A stretch of DNA of 64,000 bases from an uncultured Alphaproteobacteria bacterium. Lineage in GTDB: Bacteria > Pseudomonadota > Alphaproteobacteria > RF32 > CAG-239. Location: positions 24,244-88,243 of the forward strand of contig CASFSV010000017.1 of NCBI GenBank assembly GCA_949297415.1, written 5' to 3'. A program made the translations under genes and the position numbers. Shown one piece after another: positions 4,082 to 62,778 of this stretch. Position 1 is the stretch's first letter. Every line of letters begins with the position of its first letter. The notes under the pieces were generated by a model, which made no database searches, was not told the origin of the DNA, and saw only the letters and a program-made list of their open reading frames with translations.

Positions 4082-5584
4082 ATGGATAATCAAGATATCT
4101 CTAAATTAAAAGCTAAGAGCAGAGTGGAACTGCTGATTTTGTTTTTTGTATTGGTTCTTGCTGTGGGAGGAGTGGCTGAATATCGTCATTTGACTGCTCC
4201 GATGTCTTCGGCTATGGTTGTTTTTGATTATGCTGAGGATAAGAATTTGGAGAAAACTGATAATACTCAAACTCAAAAAAAACTTTCATCTTCGCTTGCT
4301 CAAAAAAATACTATTACTGCACCAGCAGAAGTTAAAGCTCCAATTTCTAAACTTAATCCCCCTAAAGCTCAGGAAATTTCCGTTTCGTCTGTCGCAAAAG
4401 ATGAAAAGGTACAGCTTGATGATGTGAAAAATTTAAGTGAACGTGTGCAACCTCAAAATTCTGAACAAGTGGCTCAAAAGATTCAGGATAACAACAAGCA
4501 AATCGCAGAGAAGGGAATTATTCAGGATGAAACCATTGTTCAACGCGATGGTGCTGCTGAATTGACTAATTATATGCAAGATATTCACCAAAAAGCTGAA
4601 ACCATTACTCGTCCGCAATCTGCTTTGGGACAAATTCAAGAACGTCAAGAAGTTAAAAAAACGCAACGTCAACCGCAGCCTGTGTTTGAAGCTGGTAAAA
4701 TCGAAATTTATGACAGCGAAAAAGGGGTTGTTGCTGTTCATAAAACTGTTGAAGTTATTGTACCAGAAAAGACAGTTCAAGAGGAGAAAATGGTAGATAA
4801 AGAAACAGCAGAGCTTTCTGAATCGCAAACTATCGATAATGTGAAAAAGCCTGAAACTGCTAAAGCTTCAAATGCGCAATCAGCAGAGGTAGTGAAAACA
4901 GAAACTAATTCTGTTGAACAAAAAGTTGTTGCACAAACTAAAGAGCTTGCAAATGTAGATGTCAATAAAACGGCAACGGCCGATGTATCAGATAAGGCAC
5001 AGCCGACTCTTTTGGTTCCGGTTAAAAACGAGCCGGTAGCAAATAATGAAGTTGCACCGAAACCCGCAGAAACAAAATCAGAGATAAAGCAGGATTCTGC
5101 TCAAGAAGCACCGGTTGATATGATTAAGGCTATGCAAGAAAGCAAAGCTCCGGTTAAAGAAAATACGGTTAAATCAACAACTGCTCAGGAAAATATCATC
5201 AATCAGAATGATGAAATATCATCAAATATTGTTTCTGAAAAGCCGATAACTTCTGTAACTAAGACGGTTGAGGAAAAGCAAAATGAAGTTAAAGAGCAGA
5301 TTGTAGATGATAAAGAGGCTAAAAGTAAAAAGGCTAATGAGGCTTTAGAAAACCTATTTAAGAAAATGTCTGAACCGAATGCCTTGACTAACTCTACATC
5401 TGGAGAGTTAGTTGGCGAAGTTACGGTTCCGGTTGTTGAGGCTATAAAGAGTGAATCGGTTGAAAATAAGTCTTCTATATCTCAAGGTGTTGAAAATAAT
5501 GCAAAAAATAATGCAGAAACGATTTCAAAAGTTGATGAGAGTGGGGCTGTTGATATGATGAAAGCTATTGTTTCGCGTCAATGA
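4082..5584 (+). CDS. Hypothetical membrane-anchored protein with long low-complexity (Q/E/K/V/S) disordered region
   Basis: ORF 4067..5584; ATG 4082 preceded by GGAG; one N-terminal hydrophobic helix (LLILFFVLVLAVGGVA). Confidence 0.75.
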   Translation: MDNQDISKLKAKSRVELLILFFVLVLAVGGVAEYRHLTAPMSSAMVVFDYAEDKNLEKTDNTQTQKKLSSSLAQKNTITAPAEVKAPISKLNPPKAQEISVSSVAKDEKVQLDDVKNLSERVQPQNSEQVAQKIQDNNKQIAEKGIIQDETIVQRDGAAELTNYMQDIHQKAETITRPQSALGQIQERQEVKKTQRQPQPVFEAGKIEIYDSEKGVVAVHKTVEVIVPEKTVQEEKMVDKETAELSESQTIDNVKKPETAKASNAQSAEVVKTETNSVEQKVVAQTKELANVDVNKTATADVSDKAQPTLLVPVKNEPVANNEVAPKPAETKSEIKQDSAQEAPVDMIKAMQESKAPVKENTVKSTTAQENIINQNDEISSNIVSEKPITSVTKTVEEKQNEVKEQIVDDKEAKSKKANEALENLFKKMSEPNALTNSTSGELVGEVTVPVVEAIKSESVENKSSISQGVENNAKNNAETISKVDESGAVDMMKAIVSRQ

Positions 5585-5730: not shown

Positions 5731-5805
5731 GGTCCCATCGTCTAGTGGTTAGGACATCGCCCTTTCACGGCGGTAACATGGGTTCAAATCCCGTTGGGAT
5801 CACCA
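5731..5805 (+). tRNA. tRNA-Glu (UUC)
   Basis: GGTCCCATCGTCTAGTGGTTAGGACATCGCCCTTTCACGGCGGTAACATGGGTTCAAATCCCGTTGGGATCACCA: cloverleaf, anticodon TTC, T-loop GTTCAAAT, encoded CCA. Confidence 0.97.
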
Positions 5806-22125: not shown

Positions 22126-22358
22126 GTCGTTCCTTAAAATCGATTTTAAATTGCCTTTTTATACGTAGTATAAACCGGCAAAAAATTGCAAGCGGTTATA
22201 CACTTAATCTTTCTTCTTGACTTTGTCAAGCTATATTTCCGTTTAATGCATATTTTTTTGTGCTTCTTTATCGTGTGAAAAGCTTGATTTTCTACCTTGA
22301 CAGAATAGGGGGAAACTTTGTATAATTGCTTATTGTCGGTTGGGAGTGGTGTATCGGT

Positions 22359-25157
22359 ATGCTGTGGAATGATACTGAATTGCAGAATTTATACGGTCTC
22401 GGTAAGGAAATCGTTGTTGAACGTTTTATGAAAAATTTAGATGCTCCGGAAAATGGTGATTTGTTTCAAAAGGAAAATTTTTCTTACCTATGGGGCTTAA
22501 TCGGTATCGCCGGTATTAAAGGAACTTCGCCTCTTGTTCGACACAAAATCTGGAATGCTTTGCTTCAATTCGGCGTGGTAGATGCTTTTGATAAAGGGCA
22601 ACTTTCCGATTTTAATCGTAATCTTGCTGAGCGTTATAATGACGGACGCTTAAAGGCTTGGAAAGGTCTTGATAATTTTCAGGCAAGCGTTAAGTTTCGT
22701 AAAACCGTCTTGGATAAATTGGTTAAAACTGATGCCGATTTGGCTCAACAGGTGTCGCCTTATTGCGTTGATTATAAAAAAATGATGGAACAACTCGATA
22801 ATGCGGAATTAAATGATAAATTAAAAGCTTATTTGGAACGTTTCAGAGGGTTGGGAGCTGCTTGCGGGGTGACTACCGATGCCGTTGCCGCCGTGTACGA
22901 AAAAACTGATGTGCTTCGTAAACTTTGTGATGTTGCTGCTTATACACATCGTAAATTATCCGAAAAAGAAAAAAATTACTTGTTCTTGTATTTGTTTGAG
23001 GCGGTTAATGATGGGTTTTCTCCCAAATCTATCGGTCTTGATGATGCTGTTTTAGCGAAACTTATGGCTGATGAAGCTTTGGACGGTTTATCCGAGCTTG
23101 AAGCTGAACCGCTCTTGGCGCGAAATGCCGAAATTGAAGACTTTGCGGCTAAATTTGAAGATGAATTCGGTTTTTATGAGGAAACCGAAGCTAAGTTTAT
23201 TAAACATGAATTCGGTAAAATCCGACCGATTACCGAACGTTGTCTTAAATGTATTCAAAAAGATGCTGAACCTAAAGGTGTGGTTTTTGCAATGACGCTG
23301 GTGGAACTTAACCAAATTAAATCTGCCGTGCAAATCCTTCTCGAATTGGCTAAAAGAGGACGGGCTACCGAACTTATCGGCTTTTTACATCGATTGTTGC
23401 CCAAAGTTAAAGGTTCCGAATCCTTTATTTTGGATATTATTTGTATCAATTTACAGAATTTTCATGGCGATGACGATTATTTTGTGGAATATGCCGCAAG
23501 AAGAACTTTGGCTGCCGTTCGTACTTTTATTGAGGCTAATTGCCAACAACAGGCGGCTGTGCTTCTCAAATATTTGGTGCTCGGTAATTGGTTTTTAGAT
23601 AAAAATGAATTGGTTAAGCATTTTATTTTATTGGCTAATACTTTGATGGTGCTTGACGATAGTTTTACGCCTGAAATGTCGTTTTTGGCTCATCAACTCA
23701 ATTTAAGAGTTTTTGAAACCGAAAATGGTGTGATTATCGGTACTGATGAAGATAATCCTTTGGCTATGGCTCAACAAAAATTGGAACAATTTGTTGCCGG
23801 TACTTCTATGCTCAATTGGGCTAAATATGCCGAAGAAGATAAAAAAAGAATGCAGGCTAAGGTTTCGGAAGGTATTGAAGGGGATACTTGTGATATTGAT
23901 TTTGGTGGGCTTGCTTTTCATCAACAAACGTCGTTTCGGCGTAACTCTCCAAAATCTGACGACAATGACAATACTCCGGCTATTCGTTTGACCGATGTTT
24001 CTAACTTGAAAGATAAGGTTGCTCTTCAACCAAATATCTACAAAAAAAATGATGAAATTGTTATTCCTCAAAAAATTCAGGATAAAGCGCCGGAATTGTC
24101 TTCTCATTCACAGATTAAACCTTCTGGGAAAATTCCTTCTTCCGCTGATATCCTTCGTAGTTATAGGCAAACGGATATTTCTTCAAATGTTGTTTCGGAA
24201 TTACCCAGTACGCAACTTCGTGAGAAATTATCCGAATATCCTCCGGCTGTCCAGATAGATGTTGATGAACCTTCTGCTGTTATAAAAACATCTCATTCAA
24301 ATCCTATTAATTCGATATCCGCTGCGCCGCACGACGATAGTGTTTCAATTGATGGCATAGCAGATACAAAAAATACCGAATTTGCTCAAAAAAATCTTAC
24401 CGGCGAACGTTTGATAAACAATGTAAATCATGCGATTACATCGCCTTCGGAACAACCTGTTAAATCGTCCGTTATTACAAAACAAGCTCCTCAAATTAAC
24501 GAAAACACTCCAAAGCCCTATACTCAAGCTAATGTCGTTCAGCAGGAGGAGCGTGAAGGCATAACACCAATTAAAAAAACGGAAACTCCCTTACAGACTC
24601 CTGACGTGAAACCGTTAAATGAAGAAACACATCAGGATAATCAACAATCGGTAATAACAAATGTTGCGGAAAATGTTTCTGAACAGCCTATTGCTCTCTC
24701 CGAAAATTCAGACAATGCTGTATCTACTCCTCTTACGAATGCAGATGTGCAGGAGAATGCAATTTCCAAAGAGTTGCCTCAGATTAACGATGATAAAGTT
24801 TCTCCGCTGCATGGTAACGACGAAAATTCAATTCCACAAGTAGAGGATGCTCAAGCTGCCGTACAAACTTTAGATGAATTGCCGAAATTTGAGGAATGGG
24901 AAAGCTCCGATGATGAAAATTCTTCTTCCCAATCTTCGATAAAAATAAACATAAACAATATCTTAAACATCAATTCTAAAGAAGTAGATAAACATTTTGA
25001 ACATATTAAACAAATTGCTTCCGCCGCTATGAAAAAGGCCGAAGAACAGGCGGCTGCTATTAAGAAAAAGGTGGAAGATGCCGATTTAGCCAACTCGCCG
25101 TCCGTTCATAAAATTAAAGCATTAGCTGAAAAAATTAAATTCTTTCGCAAAAAATAA
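22359..25157 (+). CDS. Large hypothetical protein (helical N-terminal half, disordered C-terminal half)
   Basis: ORF 22326..25157; promoter TTGACA(22297)-N18-TATAAT and GGGAG before ATG 22359. Confidence 0.8.
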   Translation: MLWNDTELQNLYGLGKEIVVERFMKNLDAPENGDLFQKENFSYLWGLIGIAGIKGTSPLVRHKIWNALLQFGVVDAFDKGQLSDFNRNLAERYNDGRLKAWKGLDNFQASVKFRKTVLDKLVKTDADLAQQVSPYCVDYKKMMEQLDNAELNDKLKAYLERFRGLGAACGVTTDAVAAVYEKTDVLRKLCDVAAYTHRKLSEKEKNYLFLYLFEAVNDGFSPKSIGLDDAVLAKLMADEALDGLSELEAEPLLARNAEIEDFAAKFEDEFGFYEETEAKFIKHEFGKIRPITERCLKCIQKDAEPKGVVFAMTLVELNQIKSAVQILLELAKRGRATELIGFLHRLLPKVKGSESFILDIICINLQNFHGDDDYFVEYAARRTLAAVRTFIEANCQQQAAVLLKYLVLGNWFLDKNELVKHFILLANTLMVLDDSFTPEMSFLAHQLNLRVFETENGVIIGTDEDNPLAMAQQKLEQFVAGTSMLNWAKYAEEDKKRMQAKVSEGIEGDTCDIDFGGLAFHQQTSFRRNSPKSDDNDNTPAIRLTDVSNLKDKVALQPNIYKKNDEIVIPQKIQDKAPELSSHSQIKPSGKIPSSADILRSYRQTDISSNVVSELPSTQLREKLSEYPPAVQIDVDEPSAVIKTSHSNPINSISAAPHDDSVSIDGIADTKNTEFAQKNLTGERLINNVNHAITSPSEQPVKSSVITKQAPQINENTPKPYTQANVVQQEEREGITPIKKTETPLQTPDVKPLNEETHQDNQQSVITNVAENVSEQPIALSENSDNAVSTPLTNADVQENAISKELPQINDDKVSPLHGNDENSIPQVEDAQAAVQTLDELPKFEEWESSDDENSSSQSSIKININNILNINSKEVDKHFEHIKQIASAAMKKAEEQAAAIKKKVEDADLANSPSVHKIKALAEKIKFFRKK

Positions 25158-25315
25158 TTACTTTTTGGGGAACGGTAATTTCTTTTTTTAGGTTTGTTTC
25201 TTCCGCTAATTGAGAGCTGAGGAGTATAATATTTGATAATCTGTTCTGCTCATTAAGTAATCTTGTGTTGAGCTTTTAATCTTAACCAAACTCGGATTTT
25301 TGTTATGAAACTCAT

Positions 25316-25667
25316 AAAAAAAACGCCCGATTTTCACAAATCAGACGCTTTTCATTCTTTAACTATAAAAAAATAATTTGTCAGAATCTACCGTTTTTCG
25401 CAAAGGGGCAGATTAGCGATATTTTCTTTGCAGAAAACATCTTTATTTAGCAAATTTAGATGTACTCGAATCTAAGTGAACCGTCTATTTTCACAAACAA
25501 ACGGTTCCATCATGACTAAAGCAAGACTTACTCTTGCACGAAGTTGTTAAACTTTTTAAACTCTGTTCCGGCATTCGCATGCGGGATGGAGAAAATGTCT
25601 GCGTTATTCATAGTATAAAAAAATAAGGCAGACTAAGAGAGAATAATATTTAAGTGATAATTTAGTG
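25316..25667 (-). ncRNA. Putative novel structured RNA (array of GNRA-capped hairpins); may also encode a 27-aa peptide (25528-25611)
   Basis: Promoter TTGACA-N17-TAAAAG (25702-25674); hairpins at 25567-25586, 25478-25507, 25418-25441, 25385-25414 and 25316-25352, with GCGA/GUGA/GCAA loops and G-U pairs that form only on the minus strand; the last hairpin ends in a U-run. Confidence 0.65.
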
Positions 25668-25673
25668 ATTTTT

Positions 25674-25702
25674 CTTTTAGCGCATCGGGGAGATTTTGTC
25701 AA
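25674..25702 (-). promoter_or_regulatory. sigma70 promoter for the putative ncRNA
   Basis: Minus strand TTGACA-AAATCTCCCCGATGCGC-TAAAAG. Confidence 0.6.
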
Positions 25703-25757
25703 GAATAAATTTGTTTTATATTGATTTTTATTATGCGCTGCGTTGTATGGCGAAATT

Positions 25758-27821
25758 TTAGTCGTCCGGTTCGGCTGCGTGCGACAATATTTCATCACGC
25801 TCTTTTTTTAAGCTACTCAGGCGTTCGTACGCTTCTTCGGTAAAGTTTTGGCAGATTTCTTTGGTCAGATCTTTGATTTCTTCTTCTAAATTACGTAATT
25901 TGTCTTCTAAAAGTAATTTGTCTATATTACGGCGTAAATCGTTGATAAAAGGCGGACGTTTCTGCAACATATCCAACTCCCATAACTCTTTTATTTGTTT
26001 GTTTTGTGGAGTGGCAGCTAATTTTTCCAACAATTCTTCCGTTGATATAGGTTCCTCTGTTTCGTGATATGTATCCGATATGGTGGTTAATAAATCTTTT
26101 AATTGCGGATTTTTTATTTCACAGCTTAACAGTTGTTCTTCATAATCATCAATCAATTCCGGATAAATCAGCTCGGCAGCTATAATAAATCGAATATTCT
26201 TATCATTTTCACTTTCCGCACTTTGACGCAAGGTTTCAGGTGCATTGCTAATTACATGGTTAATTTGCGGGCGAGGGGAATTATAATTATTGCGGCGGTT
26301 ATTGTTGTAACGATTATTGCCATAGCCGTTGTTGGTGCGTGAATAAGTCGAGGTCTGAGTGGTACGCGGACGAGCTACTGATTCTTCATAAGGTTGCGGT
26401 ATCGGCAATGGTTCACTTGTTGGGATATTATCTAAATAAGCCGGCGGATTTTGATTTTGTATCGGTGCAGATGTTACAGGTTTAGGCTGTGGGCGAGGAG
26501 CGTATGGGTGCGACTGTGGCGTTGAATACTCTCGCTTTTGCCAGGCTGTCTGTTTGAACGCCAAATAAATACGGTTGCGAATTTCTTGCGCATAATAACT
26601 TCTGACCGTCGCATCTCCTATTTTGGCGACTTCTGCCAATAATGTCTTTTCGATTAAGGCTTTCTTTTCCGGCGTGGAACTATCTTCATTTTCGGTATAT
26701 TTTTGCCATAAAATATCTATCAGCGGTTTCGTCTTTTTCATCAAGGCTCCGAAACTTTCTCGGCCATGTGCTTGTAAGTATTCGTCCGGATCTTGATTAT
26801 CCGGCAAAAATAAAAATTTCAGCGAGTATCCCGCTTTTAATATCGGTAAGACTCTGTCTACCGCTCGCATCGCGGCTTTTACTCCAGGACTGTCGCCGTC
26901 CAGACATAATATCGGTTCGGGACAAACTCGCCATGCTTCCATAATTTGTTCTTCCGTCAATGCTGTTCCCAGTGGTGCTACCGCGTAGCCAAAACCGTAT
27001 CTATCCAGAGCGATAACGTCCATATAACCTTCGCAGATAATCAGGTTCTTTTCTTTATAGGCAACTTCACGTGCTTTATCTAAGTTATAGAGATTTCGGC
27101 GTTTATTGAAAATAGGGGTGTCGGGCGAATTTAAATATTTCGGCTCAATCTTTTCCATTACTCTGCCGCCGAACGCAATTATCTTGCCTTGTTTATTGGT
27201 TATCGGTATCATCACTCGATTGCGAAAGAAATCATGCGGGCGGCGTGATGTGTCTTCCGGAATAGCTATCAAGCCCAGCTCTTTCAACTCTTTTTCGTTA
27301 ATACCTTCCGCTTTGAGATGGGCCATTAACGCATTGTTATTTGGGGCAAAGCCTAAACGGAATTTTTGGATGGTTTCTTTAGATAAACCGCGCTTATCCA
27401 TAAAATATTTTAGGCCTTCCGCACCTTCCGGCATTCTTAAAGATTTTTCAAAAAAGCTGCAGGCGCTTTCCATTATGTCATATAACGATTTGCGTTCTTC
27501 TTCTTCCTTTTTATCTTTGGCCGTTAGTTGAGGCATCTGTAAACCGGCCTGATGCGACAATTTTTGCAACGCATCTATAAACGGAAGTCCGTTGCCTTCC
27601 ATCTCAAACTTGATGATATCGCCATGTGCTCCGCAACCAAAGCAATGGTAAAAACCTTTGCTTTCATTGACCGTAAAAGAGGGAGTCTTTTCGTTATGAA
27701 AGGGGCATAATCCCTGATATTCTCTGCCTTTTTTGGTCAGTTTTACTTTCGCACCGACAACATCAACTATTGAAACGCGAGCGCGTAATTCCTCTATAAA
27801 GCGTTGCAAATCGTCGTTCAT
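25758..27821 (-). CDS. dnaG: DNA primase
   Basis: CPFHNEKTPSF..CFGCG zinc finger, PKYLNSP, EGYMDV, TOPRIM DGD and DPD motifs. Confidence 0.98.
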   Translation of the reverse strand: MNDDLQRFIEELRARVSIVDVVGAKVKLTKKGREYQGLCPFHNEKTPSFTVNESKGFYHCFGCGAHGDIIKFEMEGNGLPFIDALQKLSHQAGLQMPQLTAKDKKEEEERKSLYDIMESACSFFEKSLRMPEGAEGLKYFMDKRGLSKETIQKFRLGFAPNNNALMAHLKAEGINEKELKELGLIAIPEDTSRRPHDFFRNRVMIPITNKQGKIIAFGGRVMEKIEPKYLNSPDTPIFNKRRNLYNLDKAREVAYKEKNLIICEGYMDVIALDRYGFGYAVAPLGTALTEEQIMEAWRVCPEPILCLDGDSPGVKAAMRAVDRVLPILKAGYSLKFLFLPDNQDPDEYLQAHGRESFGALMKKTKPLIDILWQKYTENEDSSTPEKKALIEKTLLAEVAKIGDATVRSYYAQEIRNRIYLAFKQTAWQKREYSTPQSHPYAPRPQPKPVTSAPIQNQNPPAYLDNIPTSEPLPIPQPYEESVARPRTTQTSTYSRTNNGYGNNRYNNNRRNNYNSPRPQINHVISNAPETLRQSAESENDKNIRFIIAAELIYPELIDDYEEQLLSCEIKNPQLKDLLTTISDTYHETEEPISTEELLEKLAATPQNKQIKELWELDMLQKRPPFINDLRRNIDKLLLEDKLRNLEEEIKDLTKEICQNFTEEAYERLSSLKKERDEILSHAAEPDD

Positions 27822-62553: not shown

Positions 62554-62778
62554 ATGACTACTAATGCACAAGTTGATTTTTTGAACGATATTAAAGATAA
62601 AAAAGTTTCAGTTACCGTCTTTCTTATCAATGGTGTTAAATTGCAAGGTGTTATTACTTGGTTTGATGCAACTTCTTTGCTGTTGAGACGTGATGGGCAT
62701 ACTCAACTTGTTTATACTCACGCTGTTTCTACAATTATGCCGGCAACTCCGATTGATGTTGTTGAAGAAAAAGAATAA
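62554..62778 (+). CDS. hfq: RNA chaperone Hfq (divergent)
   Basis: [37 protein letters not shown]; upstream of hflX. Confidence 0.95.

Follow-up and report, generated by a model that had tools for sequence, protein, structure and literature searches.

A predicted hairpin-array non-coding RNA gene downstream of dnaG in uncultured gut and rumen Alphaproteobacteria

Introduction

CsrB, RsmY and RsmZ are protein-sponge RNAs built as chains of hairpins that repeat a GGA-bearing loop motif. AbcR1 and AbcR2 are tandem, Hfq-dependent small RNAs (sRNAs) of Alphaproteobacteria with C-rich anti-Shine-Dalgarno (anti-SD) loops, and boxB of the lambdoid nut sites is a single pentaloop hairpin that serves as the N-protein site in cis-acting antitermination. 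Here, we analyzed an element with five GNRA-capped hairpins on the minus strand of a 64,000-nucleotide stretch of DNA from an uncultured alphaproteobacterium (the window), at positions 25316 to ~25667. The element shows a conserved promoter, a covarying multi-hairpin fold, and a conserved intrinsic terminator. Very probably, it is a true, structured non-coding RNA gene of ~350 nt that is transcribed independently, and sequence comparison suggests, as the best explanation, that it belongs to an sRNA family specific to this lineage of uncultured Alphaproteobacteria from gut and rumen. To our knowledge, bacteria of this kind are known only from metagenome bins, and RNA regulation in them is undescribed.

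Comparison with described RNA families

The RNA belongs to no described Rfam family, and it resembles CsrB and RsmZ in logic without their defining features. Like CsrB, RsmY, and RsmZ, it has its own promoter and intrinsic terminator and a chain of hairpins that repeats one apical motif; the repeat number differs by species, and paralogous copies exist. Unlike in those RNAs, the loops are GNRA tetraloops and not GGA-bearing. The five capped loops are GCGA, GUGA, GCAA, GCGA, and GUGA, none of them containing GGA, and the sole GGA, just 5' of the second capped hairpin (HP2), is not conserved. Csr/Rsm families were absent from the Rfam matches even at E ≤ 10.

With AbcR1 and AbcR2, the RNA shares an Hfq-bearing alphaproteobacterial host, tandem paralogous units that each carry a promoter and a terminator, and a U-rich 3' end. 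It differs from them in being about three times longer, in having neither C-rich anti-SD loops nor an Rfam match, and in carrying conserved mismatch-bearing GNRA hairpins. The boxB element offers an analogy, as a small hairpin whose loop takes a GNRA-type fold and which serves as a specific protein site on a transcript, whereas the hairpins described here have tetraloops and a C.C mismatch and are arrayed on a stand-alone RNA. No N-like protein turned up, and no search for one was made. Like 6S RNA, the element is structured and of a similar size order, and it lies between dnaG and rpoD; unlike 6S RNA, which is one long rod with a central bubble, it forms a string of separate hairpins. The 6S family (RF00013) had no match in the region, and the bona fide 6S gene of the same genome is located elsewhere (C50:5467-5624, 58.6 bits).

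A preliminary description of the window, made from the sequence alone, had recognized no known family in the element and had set an Rfam search beforehand as a refuting test. That search (Rfam 15) gave no match to the element at the gathering score; the window yielded only a tRNA at 5731-5802, and 11 homologous loci yielded no match (0 of 11). At E ≤ 10, there were 18 matches in the region, all far below the gathering score. The best sub-threshold alignment was to GibS of Bacteroides (RF04182, 29.4 bits against a gathering score of 115), followed by SSRC34_2 of Streptococcus (RF02618, 28.9 against 48) and BTnc060 of Bacteroides (RF04184, 28.5 against 228.9). These three RNAs share a terminator hairpin with a UUU-GUGA-AAA-like apex; only the terminator aligns, and the phylum differs. 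In a literature search judged by titles and abstracts, nothing on such an RNA was seen among the papers listed.

A riboswitch or 5' leader was also considered and rejected. The element ends in its terminator and is followed by a convergent open reading frame (ORF) of 943 aa, the next minus-strand gene being 3 kb off.

Promoter, leader and terminator

The promoter and terminator named in the preliminary description, TTGACA-N17-TAAAAG and a GUGA hairpin with eight U residues (U8), are both present and are conserved among homologues. The -35 hexamer TTGACA (25697-25702, minus strand, as for all RNA features below) is invariant in 7/7 aligned homologues, and TTGACA is also found ahead of more distant units. 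The -10 element TAAAAG (25674-25679) follows 17 nt past the -35, with its TA and the spacing kept in the same seven sequences, and presumably fits the alphaproteobacterial housekeeping consensus. A consensus scanner for promoters and terminators called neither signal of the RNA gene. The -10 was missed because the scanner demands a final T, which TAAAAG does not have, and the terminator because its stem runs into the flanking A/U runs and leaves too few free T.

The 5' end is predicted at ~25667 from the position of the -10 element. It opens an A/U-rich leader (25642-25667) that is near-invariant, unpaired in the consensus fold, and the most conserved stretch of the RNA in the seven-sequence alignment. 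Tandem Repeats Finder (TRF) reported an 11-nt direct repeat of 1.9 copies in the leader (window 25648-25669). An A/U-rich, AUUAU-type leader motif also recurs in distant units, as read by eye and without a background statistic.

At the 3' end, an A/U-rich linker with a U run (25350-25384) precedes the terminator. It is variable among relatives, and we read it as a possible Hfq-type 3' module. The intrinsic terminator (25316-25349) has at least 12 pairs, including several G-U, a GUGA loop, and U8. It is conserved in 5/5 sequences of the 3'-half alignment, with exchanges among G-U, A-U, and G-C pairs.

Predicted fold

The genome to which the window belongs (G000) comprises 1.56 Mb in 52 contigs, with 36% G+C and 89.6% completeness; the window lies on contig C17. 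For the 361-nt minus-strand stretch, the minimum free energy was -97.6 kcal/mol. Among 100 dinucleotide shuffles (mean -68.2, sd 4.64), none folded as well, which corresponds to a z of -6.34. The plus strand reached -77.9 kcal/mol with a z of -3.08. It folds worse, as expected, because the G-U pairs turn into C.A mismatches there, and this agrees with the earlier claim that the G-U pairs form on the minus strand only.

All elements listed in the preliminary description were found on the minus strand at the positions it gave. Each of the capped hairpins, five in all, appears in both the minimum-energy and the centroid structure, as do the small stems. One further hairpin, supported by covariation and here called hairpin A (25597-25633), had been missed. 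The shared apex UUU-GYGA-AAA was likewise recovered: the window contains TTTGYGAAAA 5 times, where 1.79 copies are expected, and three of the five lie inside the element.

Homologues and covariation

When 41 genomes (G000 and 40 relatives) were searched at the DNA level, four species of the same genus proved to have clear homologues, with 70-80% identity; all of these lie immediately downstream of dnaG and on its strand. In G000 itself, the element is single-copy, the search of its own genome returning one place. The close relatives are metagenome bins of uncultured Alphaproteobacteria from animal gut or rumen samples. An alignment of seven sequences showed conserved hairpins and a conserved terminator.

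Two covariance models were built for wider searches, one of the 5' domain over 200 positions (R1) and one of the recurrent hairpin module (R2); their E-values are rough, and the genomes searched are metagenome bins. R1 matched 11/36 genomes of the genus. In an order-wide sample, it matched 7/151 genomes, namely 5/19 in the genus, 1/34 in a second genus, and G000.

Covariation was assessed on the model-fitted alignment A3, with 13 matches (12 distinct). In this alignment, 95.6% of cells pair, compared to 37-47% in slid controls, 26/36 pairs show changes on both sides, and 0/500 shuffles reach any of five measures; these figures overstate the case somewhat, given a model-fitted alignment of related sequences. 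Together with both-side changes in 10/11 pairs of the module described below, they uphold the earlier statement that the RNA structure is under selection. An absence of covariation among homologues, also named beforehand as a refuting outcome, is not what the alignments showed. For the 3' half, just two consensus helices emerged from an unfitted MAFFT/RNAalifold analysis of five sequences, the fourth capped hairpin (HP4) and the terminator.

From 5' to 3', hairpin A forms helix 2, in which 5/6 pairs are compensatory and 95% of cells are paired. HP1 (25567-25586), with a GCGA loop, corresponds to helices 3 and 4, and a small hairpin at 25521-25537 to helices 5 and 6. The consensus fold and the alignment leave a conserved unpaired stretch, UCAUGAUG, at 25508-25515. 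Its UGAU may pair with AUCA of the leader, a weakly supported helix 1 with 86% of cells paired. HP2 (25478-25507) has a stem of 13 pairs with an invariant G-U at position 4 and the UUU-GUGA-AAA apex; it is helix 7, with both-side changes in 9/13 pairs and 98.7% of cells paired.

The next two elements of the preliminary description, a small stem (25456-25475) and HP3 (25418-25441), are present in the predicted fold of G000 and are not kept as described in relatives. The small stem is not conserved, and HP3 keeps the base of its stem, while its interior and its GCAA loop are variable and it falls outside the 3'-half consensus. HP4 (25385-25414) carries the UUU-GCGA-AAA apex.

The recurrent hairpin module

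A census of the GNRA hairpins in twelve units revealed a common build: beneath a GYGA loop lie four pairs, then a mismatch at position 5 from the loop, and below it a lower stem that varies. In class I, represented by HP1 and HP4, the position-5 mismatch is almost always C opposite C, whereas class II, represented by HP2, has the invariant G-U at position 4. The terminator hairpins in the census are fully paired. HP1 shows the class-I build in G000, with a lower stem, the C.C mismatch, four pairs, and GCGA; HP4 carries a C.A mismatch in addition to C.C.

A total of 29 class-I hairpins align without gaps, and 10/11 pairs show changes on both sides. Their cells are paired at 90.6% compared to 41-51% when slid, a percentage that is circular because the rows were picked by a pairing filter; the diversity of pair types is not circular. 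The seed hairpins of R2 were chosen by the same kind of filter.

R2 gave three matches in G000 at E ≤ 1, all within the RNA locus; HP4 had the best score of this genome (37.9 bits), and HP1 matched with 27 bits. Across the genus, R2 matched 23/36 genomes, as tight clusters on the same strand. The number of matches was 11 in G024, 10 in G022, 8 in G009, 7 in G050, 6 each in G023 and G045, 5 in G004, and 3 in G000. The G045 matches are spread over three contigs. In a family-wide sample at E ≤ 0.001, R2 matched 33/151 genomes and 10/23 genera.

Module number also varies with whole units. In G022, G024, G050, and G009, a second unit stands in tandem and has a TTGACA promoter and a terminator of its own, and G023 has a single unit of ~650 nt with six modules. 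Second paralogous units were placed at L015 5131-5780, L012 5158-5558, and L048 (G009:C23). The second tandem units have a different 5' part, HP2- and HP4-like modules, and their own terminator; that of G022 contains about four or five class-I modules.

Like units occur outside the genus. Three loci of two further genera (L078, L081, and L082) have one directly downstream of anmK, with a TTGACA promoter, ~300 nt of non-coding sequence, and a class-I GUGA terminator; AnmK was identified by Pfam for L078 and L082. These anmK-linked units may be a sister sRNA family.

Proposed mode of action

We favor a reading in which the RNA serves as a multivalent platform, either a decoy or a scaffold, for a factor that would most likely be a protein. 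This factor would recognize the class-I hairpin by its variable lower stem, position-5 C.C mismatch, four-pair helix, and GYGA tetraloop, and the valency would follow the number of modules per transcript in each species. The U-rich 3' stretch and the terminator, together with the unpaired leader, may add Hfq binding or base-pairing. The platform is favored because a conserved apex and mismatch sit on drifting stems and the module number is free to change. We infer that stems that drift under a kept apex and mismatch are the marks of a repeated recognition site. Multivalent binding of a factor as the main mode of action is put forward tentatively, with somewhat less than even confidence.

Several observations weigh against this platform. 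A strict C.C scan of G000 gave 5 matches compared to 3-9 in Markov-simulated genomes, and 0/5 of them fall in the RNA locus. The genome has only two class-I hairpins there, both imperfect and failing the strict filter. There is thus no excess of class-I hairpins elsewhere in G000, and no messenger RNA sites are visible for which a decoy could compete. In two other genera (L079 and L080), a class-I hairpin with a U run comes right behind a protein ORF, in the manner of a plain terminator, so the apex could be a lineage-typical stable hairpin spread by duplication. As for partners, searches of G000 (89.6% complete) found neither CsrA (PF02599) nor ProQ, and a control search for CsrA was positive in three known genomes. 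The CsrB-like logic proposed in the preliminary description agrees with the repeated module and its varying copy number; it draws no support from CsrA or from GGA loops.

A further and doubtful step is to see in the RNA the first member of a new class of decoy or scaffold RNAs built as hairpin arrays, in host-associated Alphaproteobacteria lacking CsrA. In such a class, the factor would read the C.C mismatch set four pairs below the GYGA tetraloop. The dose would be tuned by module amplification per transcript and by tandem duplication of the whole gene, the range being 3-11 model matches per genome.

The new RNA family offers a defined module of mismatch and tetraloop, natural variation in valency, and a small genome. 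Should a protein prove to bind the module, the sponge-RNA logic of CsrB and CrcZ would have a second, independent example. Otherwise, the question becomes why hairpins that resemble terminators keep a destabilizing C.C mismatch across genera.

Alternative explanations

The alternative that survives best is a trans-acting, Hfq-dependent base-pairing sRNA, in which the leader, UCAUGAUG, or both would be seeds and the hairpins would provide stability or shape only. We consider it a strong rival, somewhat less probable than the platform, and the two are not mutually exclusive. The window contains hfq (PF17209, 83.8 bits, G000:C17:86812-86997, corresponding to window 62569-62754 on the plus strand), and the 3' terminator hairpin with U8 after a U-rich stretch agrees with what we take to be the rule for Hfq modules. 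The leader, which would be a seed, is the most conserved part and is unpaired, and the tandem units with their own promoters recall the arrangement of AbcR1 and AbcR2. Yet at ~350 nt with at least seven hairpins, the RNA is much larger than typical seed-type sRNAs, and its candidate seeds, rich in A and U, have little specificity. A crude duplex scan of the two unpaired stretches against 1582 crude start regions returned long, spurious duplexes blind to accessibility, with neither a clear target nor a usable ranking. Base-pairing also leaves the kept C.C mismatch and apex on paralogous hairpins, and the multiplication of modules, unexplained.

The hairpins could instead be modules for stability, processing, or leaky termination without a specific partner, producing nested or processed short RNAs, with the apex derived from duplication of the terminator hairpin. 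This appears improbable. Class-I hairpins do end units and, in other genera, protein genes; runs of 4-6 U follow some of the internal modules in G022, G019, G050, and G023, and modules that are almost identical to one another within G023 and within G022 suggest recent duplication. In G000, however, HP1 and HP4 have no U run after them, and the mismatch, which weakens the stem, is kept across genera while the lower stems covary. Among the 133 tetraloop terminator-like hairpins of G000, the loop is GNRA in 14, and the UUU-GUGA-AAA form occurs at this locus only. The array is therefore not a by-product of the way terminators are built in this genome.

A still less probable explanation is a cis element of the neighboring genes, either a 3' untranslated region of dnaG or an insulator or bidirectional terminator between convergent genes. 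There is no strong terminator between the dnaG stop codon and the RNA promoter, so read-through from dnaG is possible, and the RNA terminator has an upstream A run with which it could work in both directions. The order dnaG-RNA-943-aa ORF is kept in 6/9 loci compared; G016 shows this order. Against such a role, the RNA has a conserved promoter of its own, and relatives at L014, L019, and L022 have dnaG followed directly by the convergent gene with no counterpart of the element. Homologues also sit in unrelated contexts, beside an M17 peptidase gene in G049, a phage terminase gene in G045 (L038 564-1517; large subunit, Pfam Terminase_3), and GT8/DsbA genes in G004, besides the units after anmK in other genera. 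Because these three homologues sit outside the dnaG context, the RNA is regarded as a gene of its own. The G045 copy may lie in or beside a prophage.

A small-protein gene or a dual-function RNA, the latter suggested in the preliminary description, is very unlikely. The 27-codon frame (25528-25611) starts with ATG at 25611, and we judge it to be non-coding. No Shine-Dalgarno sequence is present ahead of it, and neither its length nor its frame is conserved, the ORF measuring 27, 16, 11, 11, 21, and 21 aa in six homologues, with the start deleted in the seventh (G019). Only its first five codons are kept; they make up the 3' arm of hairpin A, where the start codon lies.

Just as hard to credit is a selfish or dispersed repeat of REP or MITE type, or an array resembling type III antitoxins: modules do multiply within the locus in some species, but the element is single-copy in G000 with all R2 matches at the locus, TRF found no tandem array there beyond the 11-nt leader repeat, and no same-strand gene follows as a possible toxin, the next gene being convergent.

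Genomic context

Two convergent genes flank the RNA locus, which lies in the 600 nt that separate them (25158-25757). The upstream one, on the strand of the RNA, is dnaG, encoding primase (25758-27821, minus strand), with the Pfam domains DNAG_N, Zn_ribbon_DnaG, and Toprim. The usual downstream neighbor is the 943-aa ORF (22326-25157, plus strand). Further out, yqeY is located upstream of dnaG, and rpoD is the next minus-strand gene, 3 kb beyond the RNA.

For the 943-aa ORF, neither Pfam nor NCBIfam gave a family, and the Atlas scores, at most 0.82, are at chance level; no RNA-binding domain could be named in it from the family or Atlas searches. Its N-terminal half looks structured, and its long C-terminal half is of low complexity, acidic and serine-rich, with a conserved basic tail. 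By tblastn, a homologue adjoins the RNA in 6/6 dnaG-bearing loci of the nine-locus comparison, and in a second tblastn search, one was found beside the RNA locus in 6/15 loci. In G008, the gene still adjoins the RNA even though the upstream gene is not dnaG.

None of 11 sequencing runs listed is recorded as RNA. When contigs of X5, X6, X1, and X7 were compared with the locus, X5 and X6 gave contigs of 248 nt (25454-25701) and 192 nt (25283-25474), respectively, at depth 2. The first takes in the -35 region, and both are uninformative on expression.

In the genus of the window, the 943-aa gene stands as an insertion between dnaG and rpoD. In a more distant relative, at L028 (~4290-4440), a TTGACA promoter just after dnaG leads directly into a long ORF that was read by eye as rpoD. 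Speculatively, the promoter of the RNA (25674-25702) might descend from an old rpoD promoter.

The tRNA gene mentioned above is on the plus strand. In two G+C-richer relatives from mouse-gut bins (L024 and L026), the spacer between dnaG and rpoD contains, in its first 600 nt after dnaG, other G+C-rich repeats, both direct and inverted, with a tandem unit of ~33 nt in L026; these repeats are unrelated to the hairpin modules. At L062 (G041), the sequence between the 943-aa homologue and the RNA unit, upstream of the latter, contains a short, lysine-rich ORF of ~50 codons that has a TTGACA promoter and a terminator of its own.

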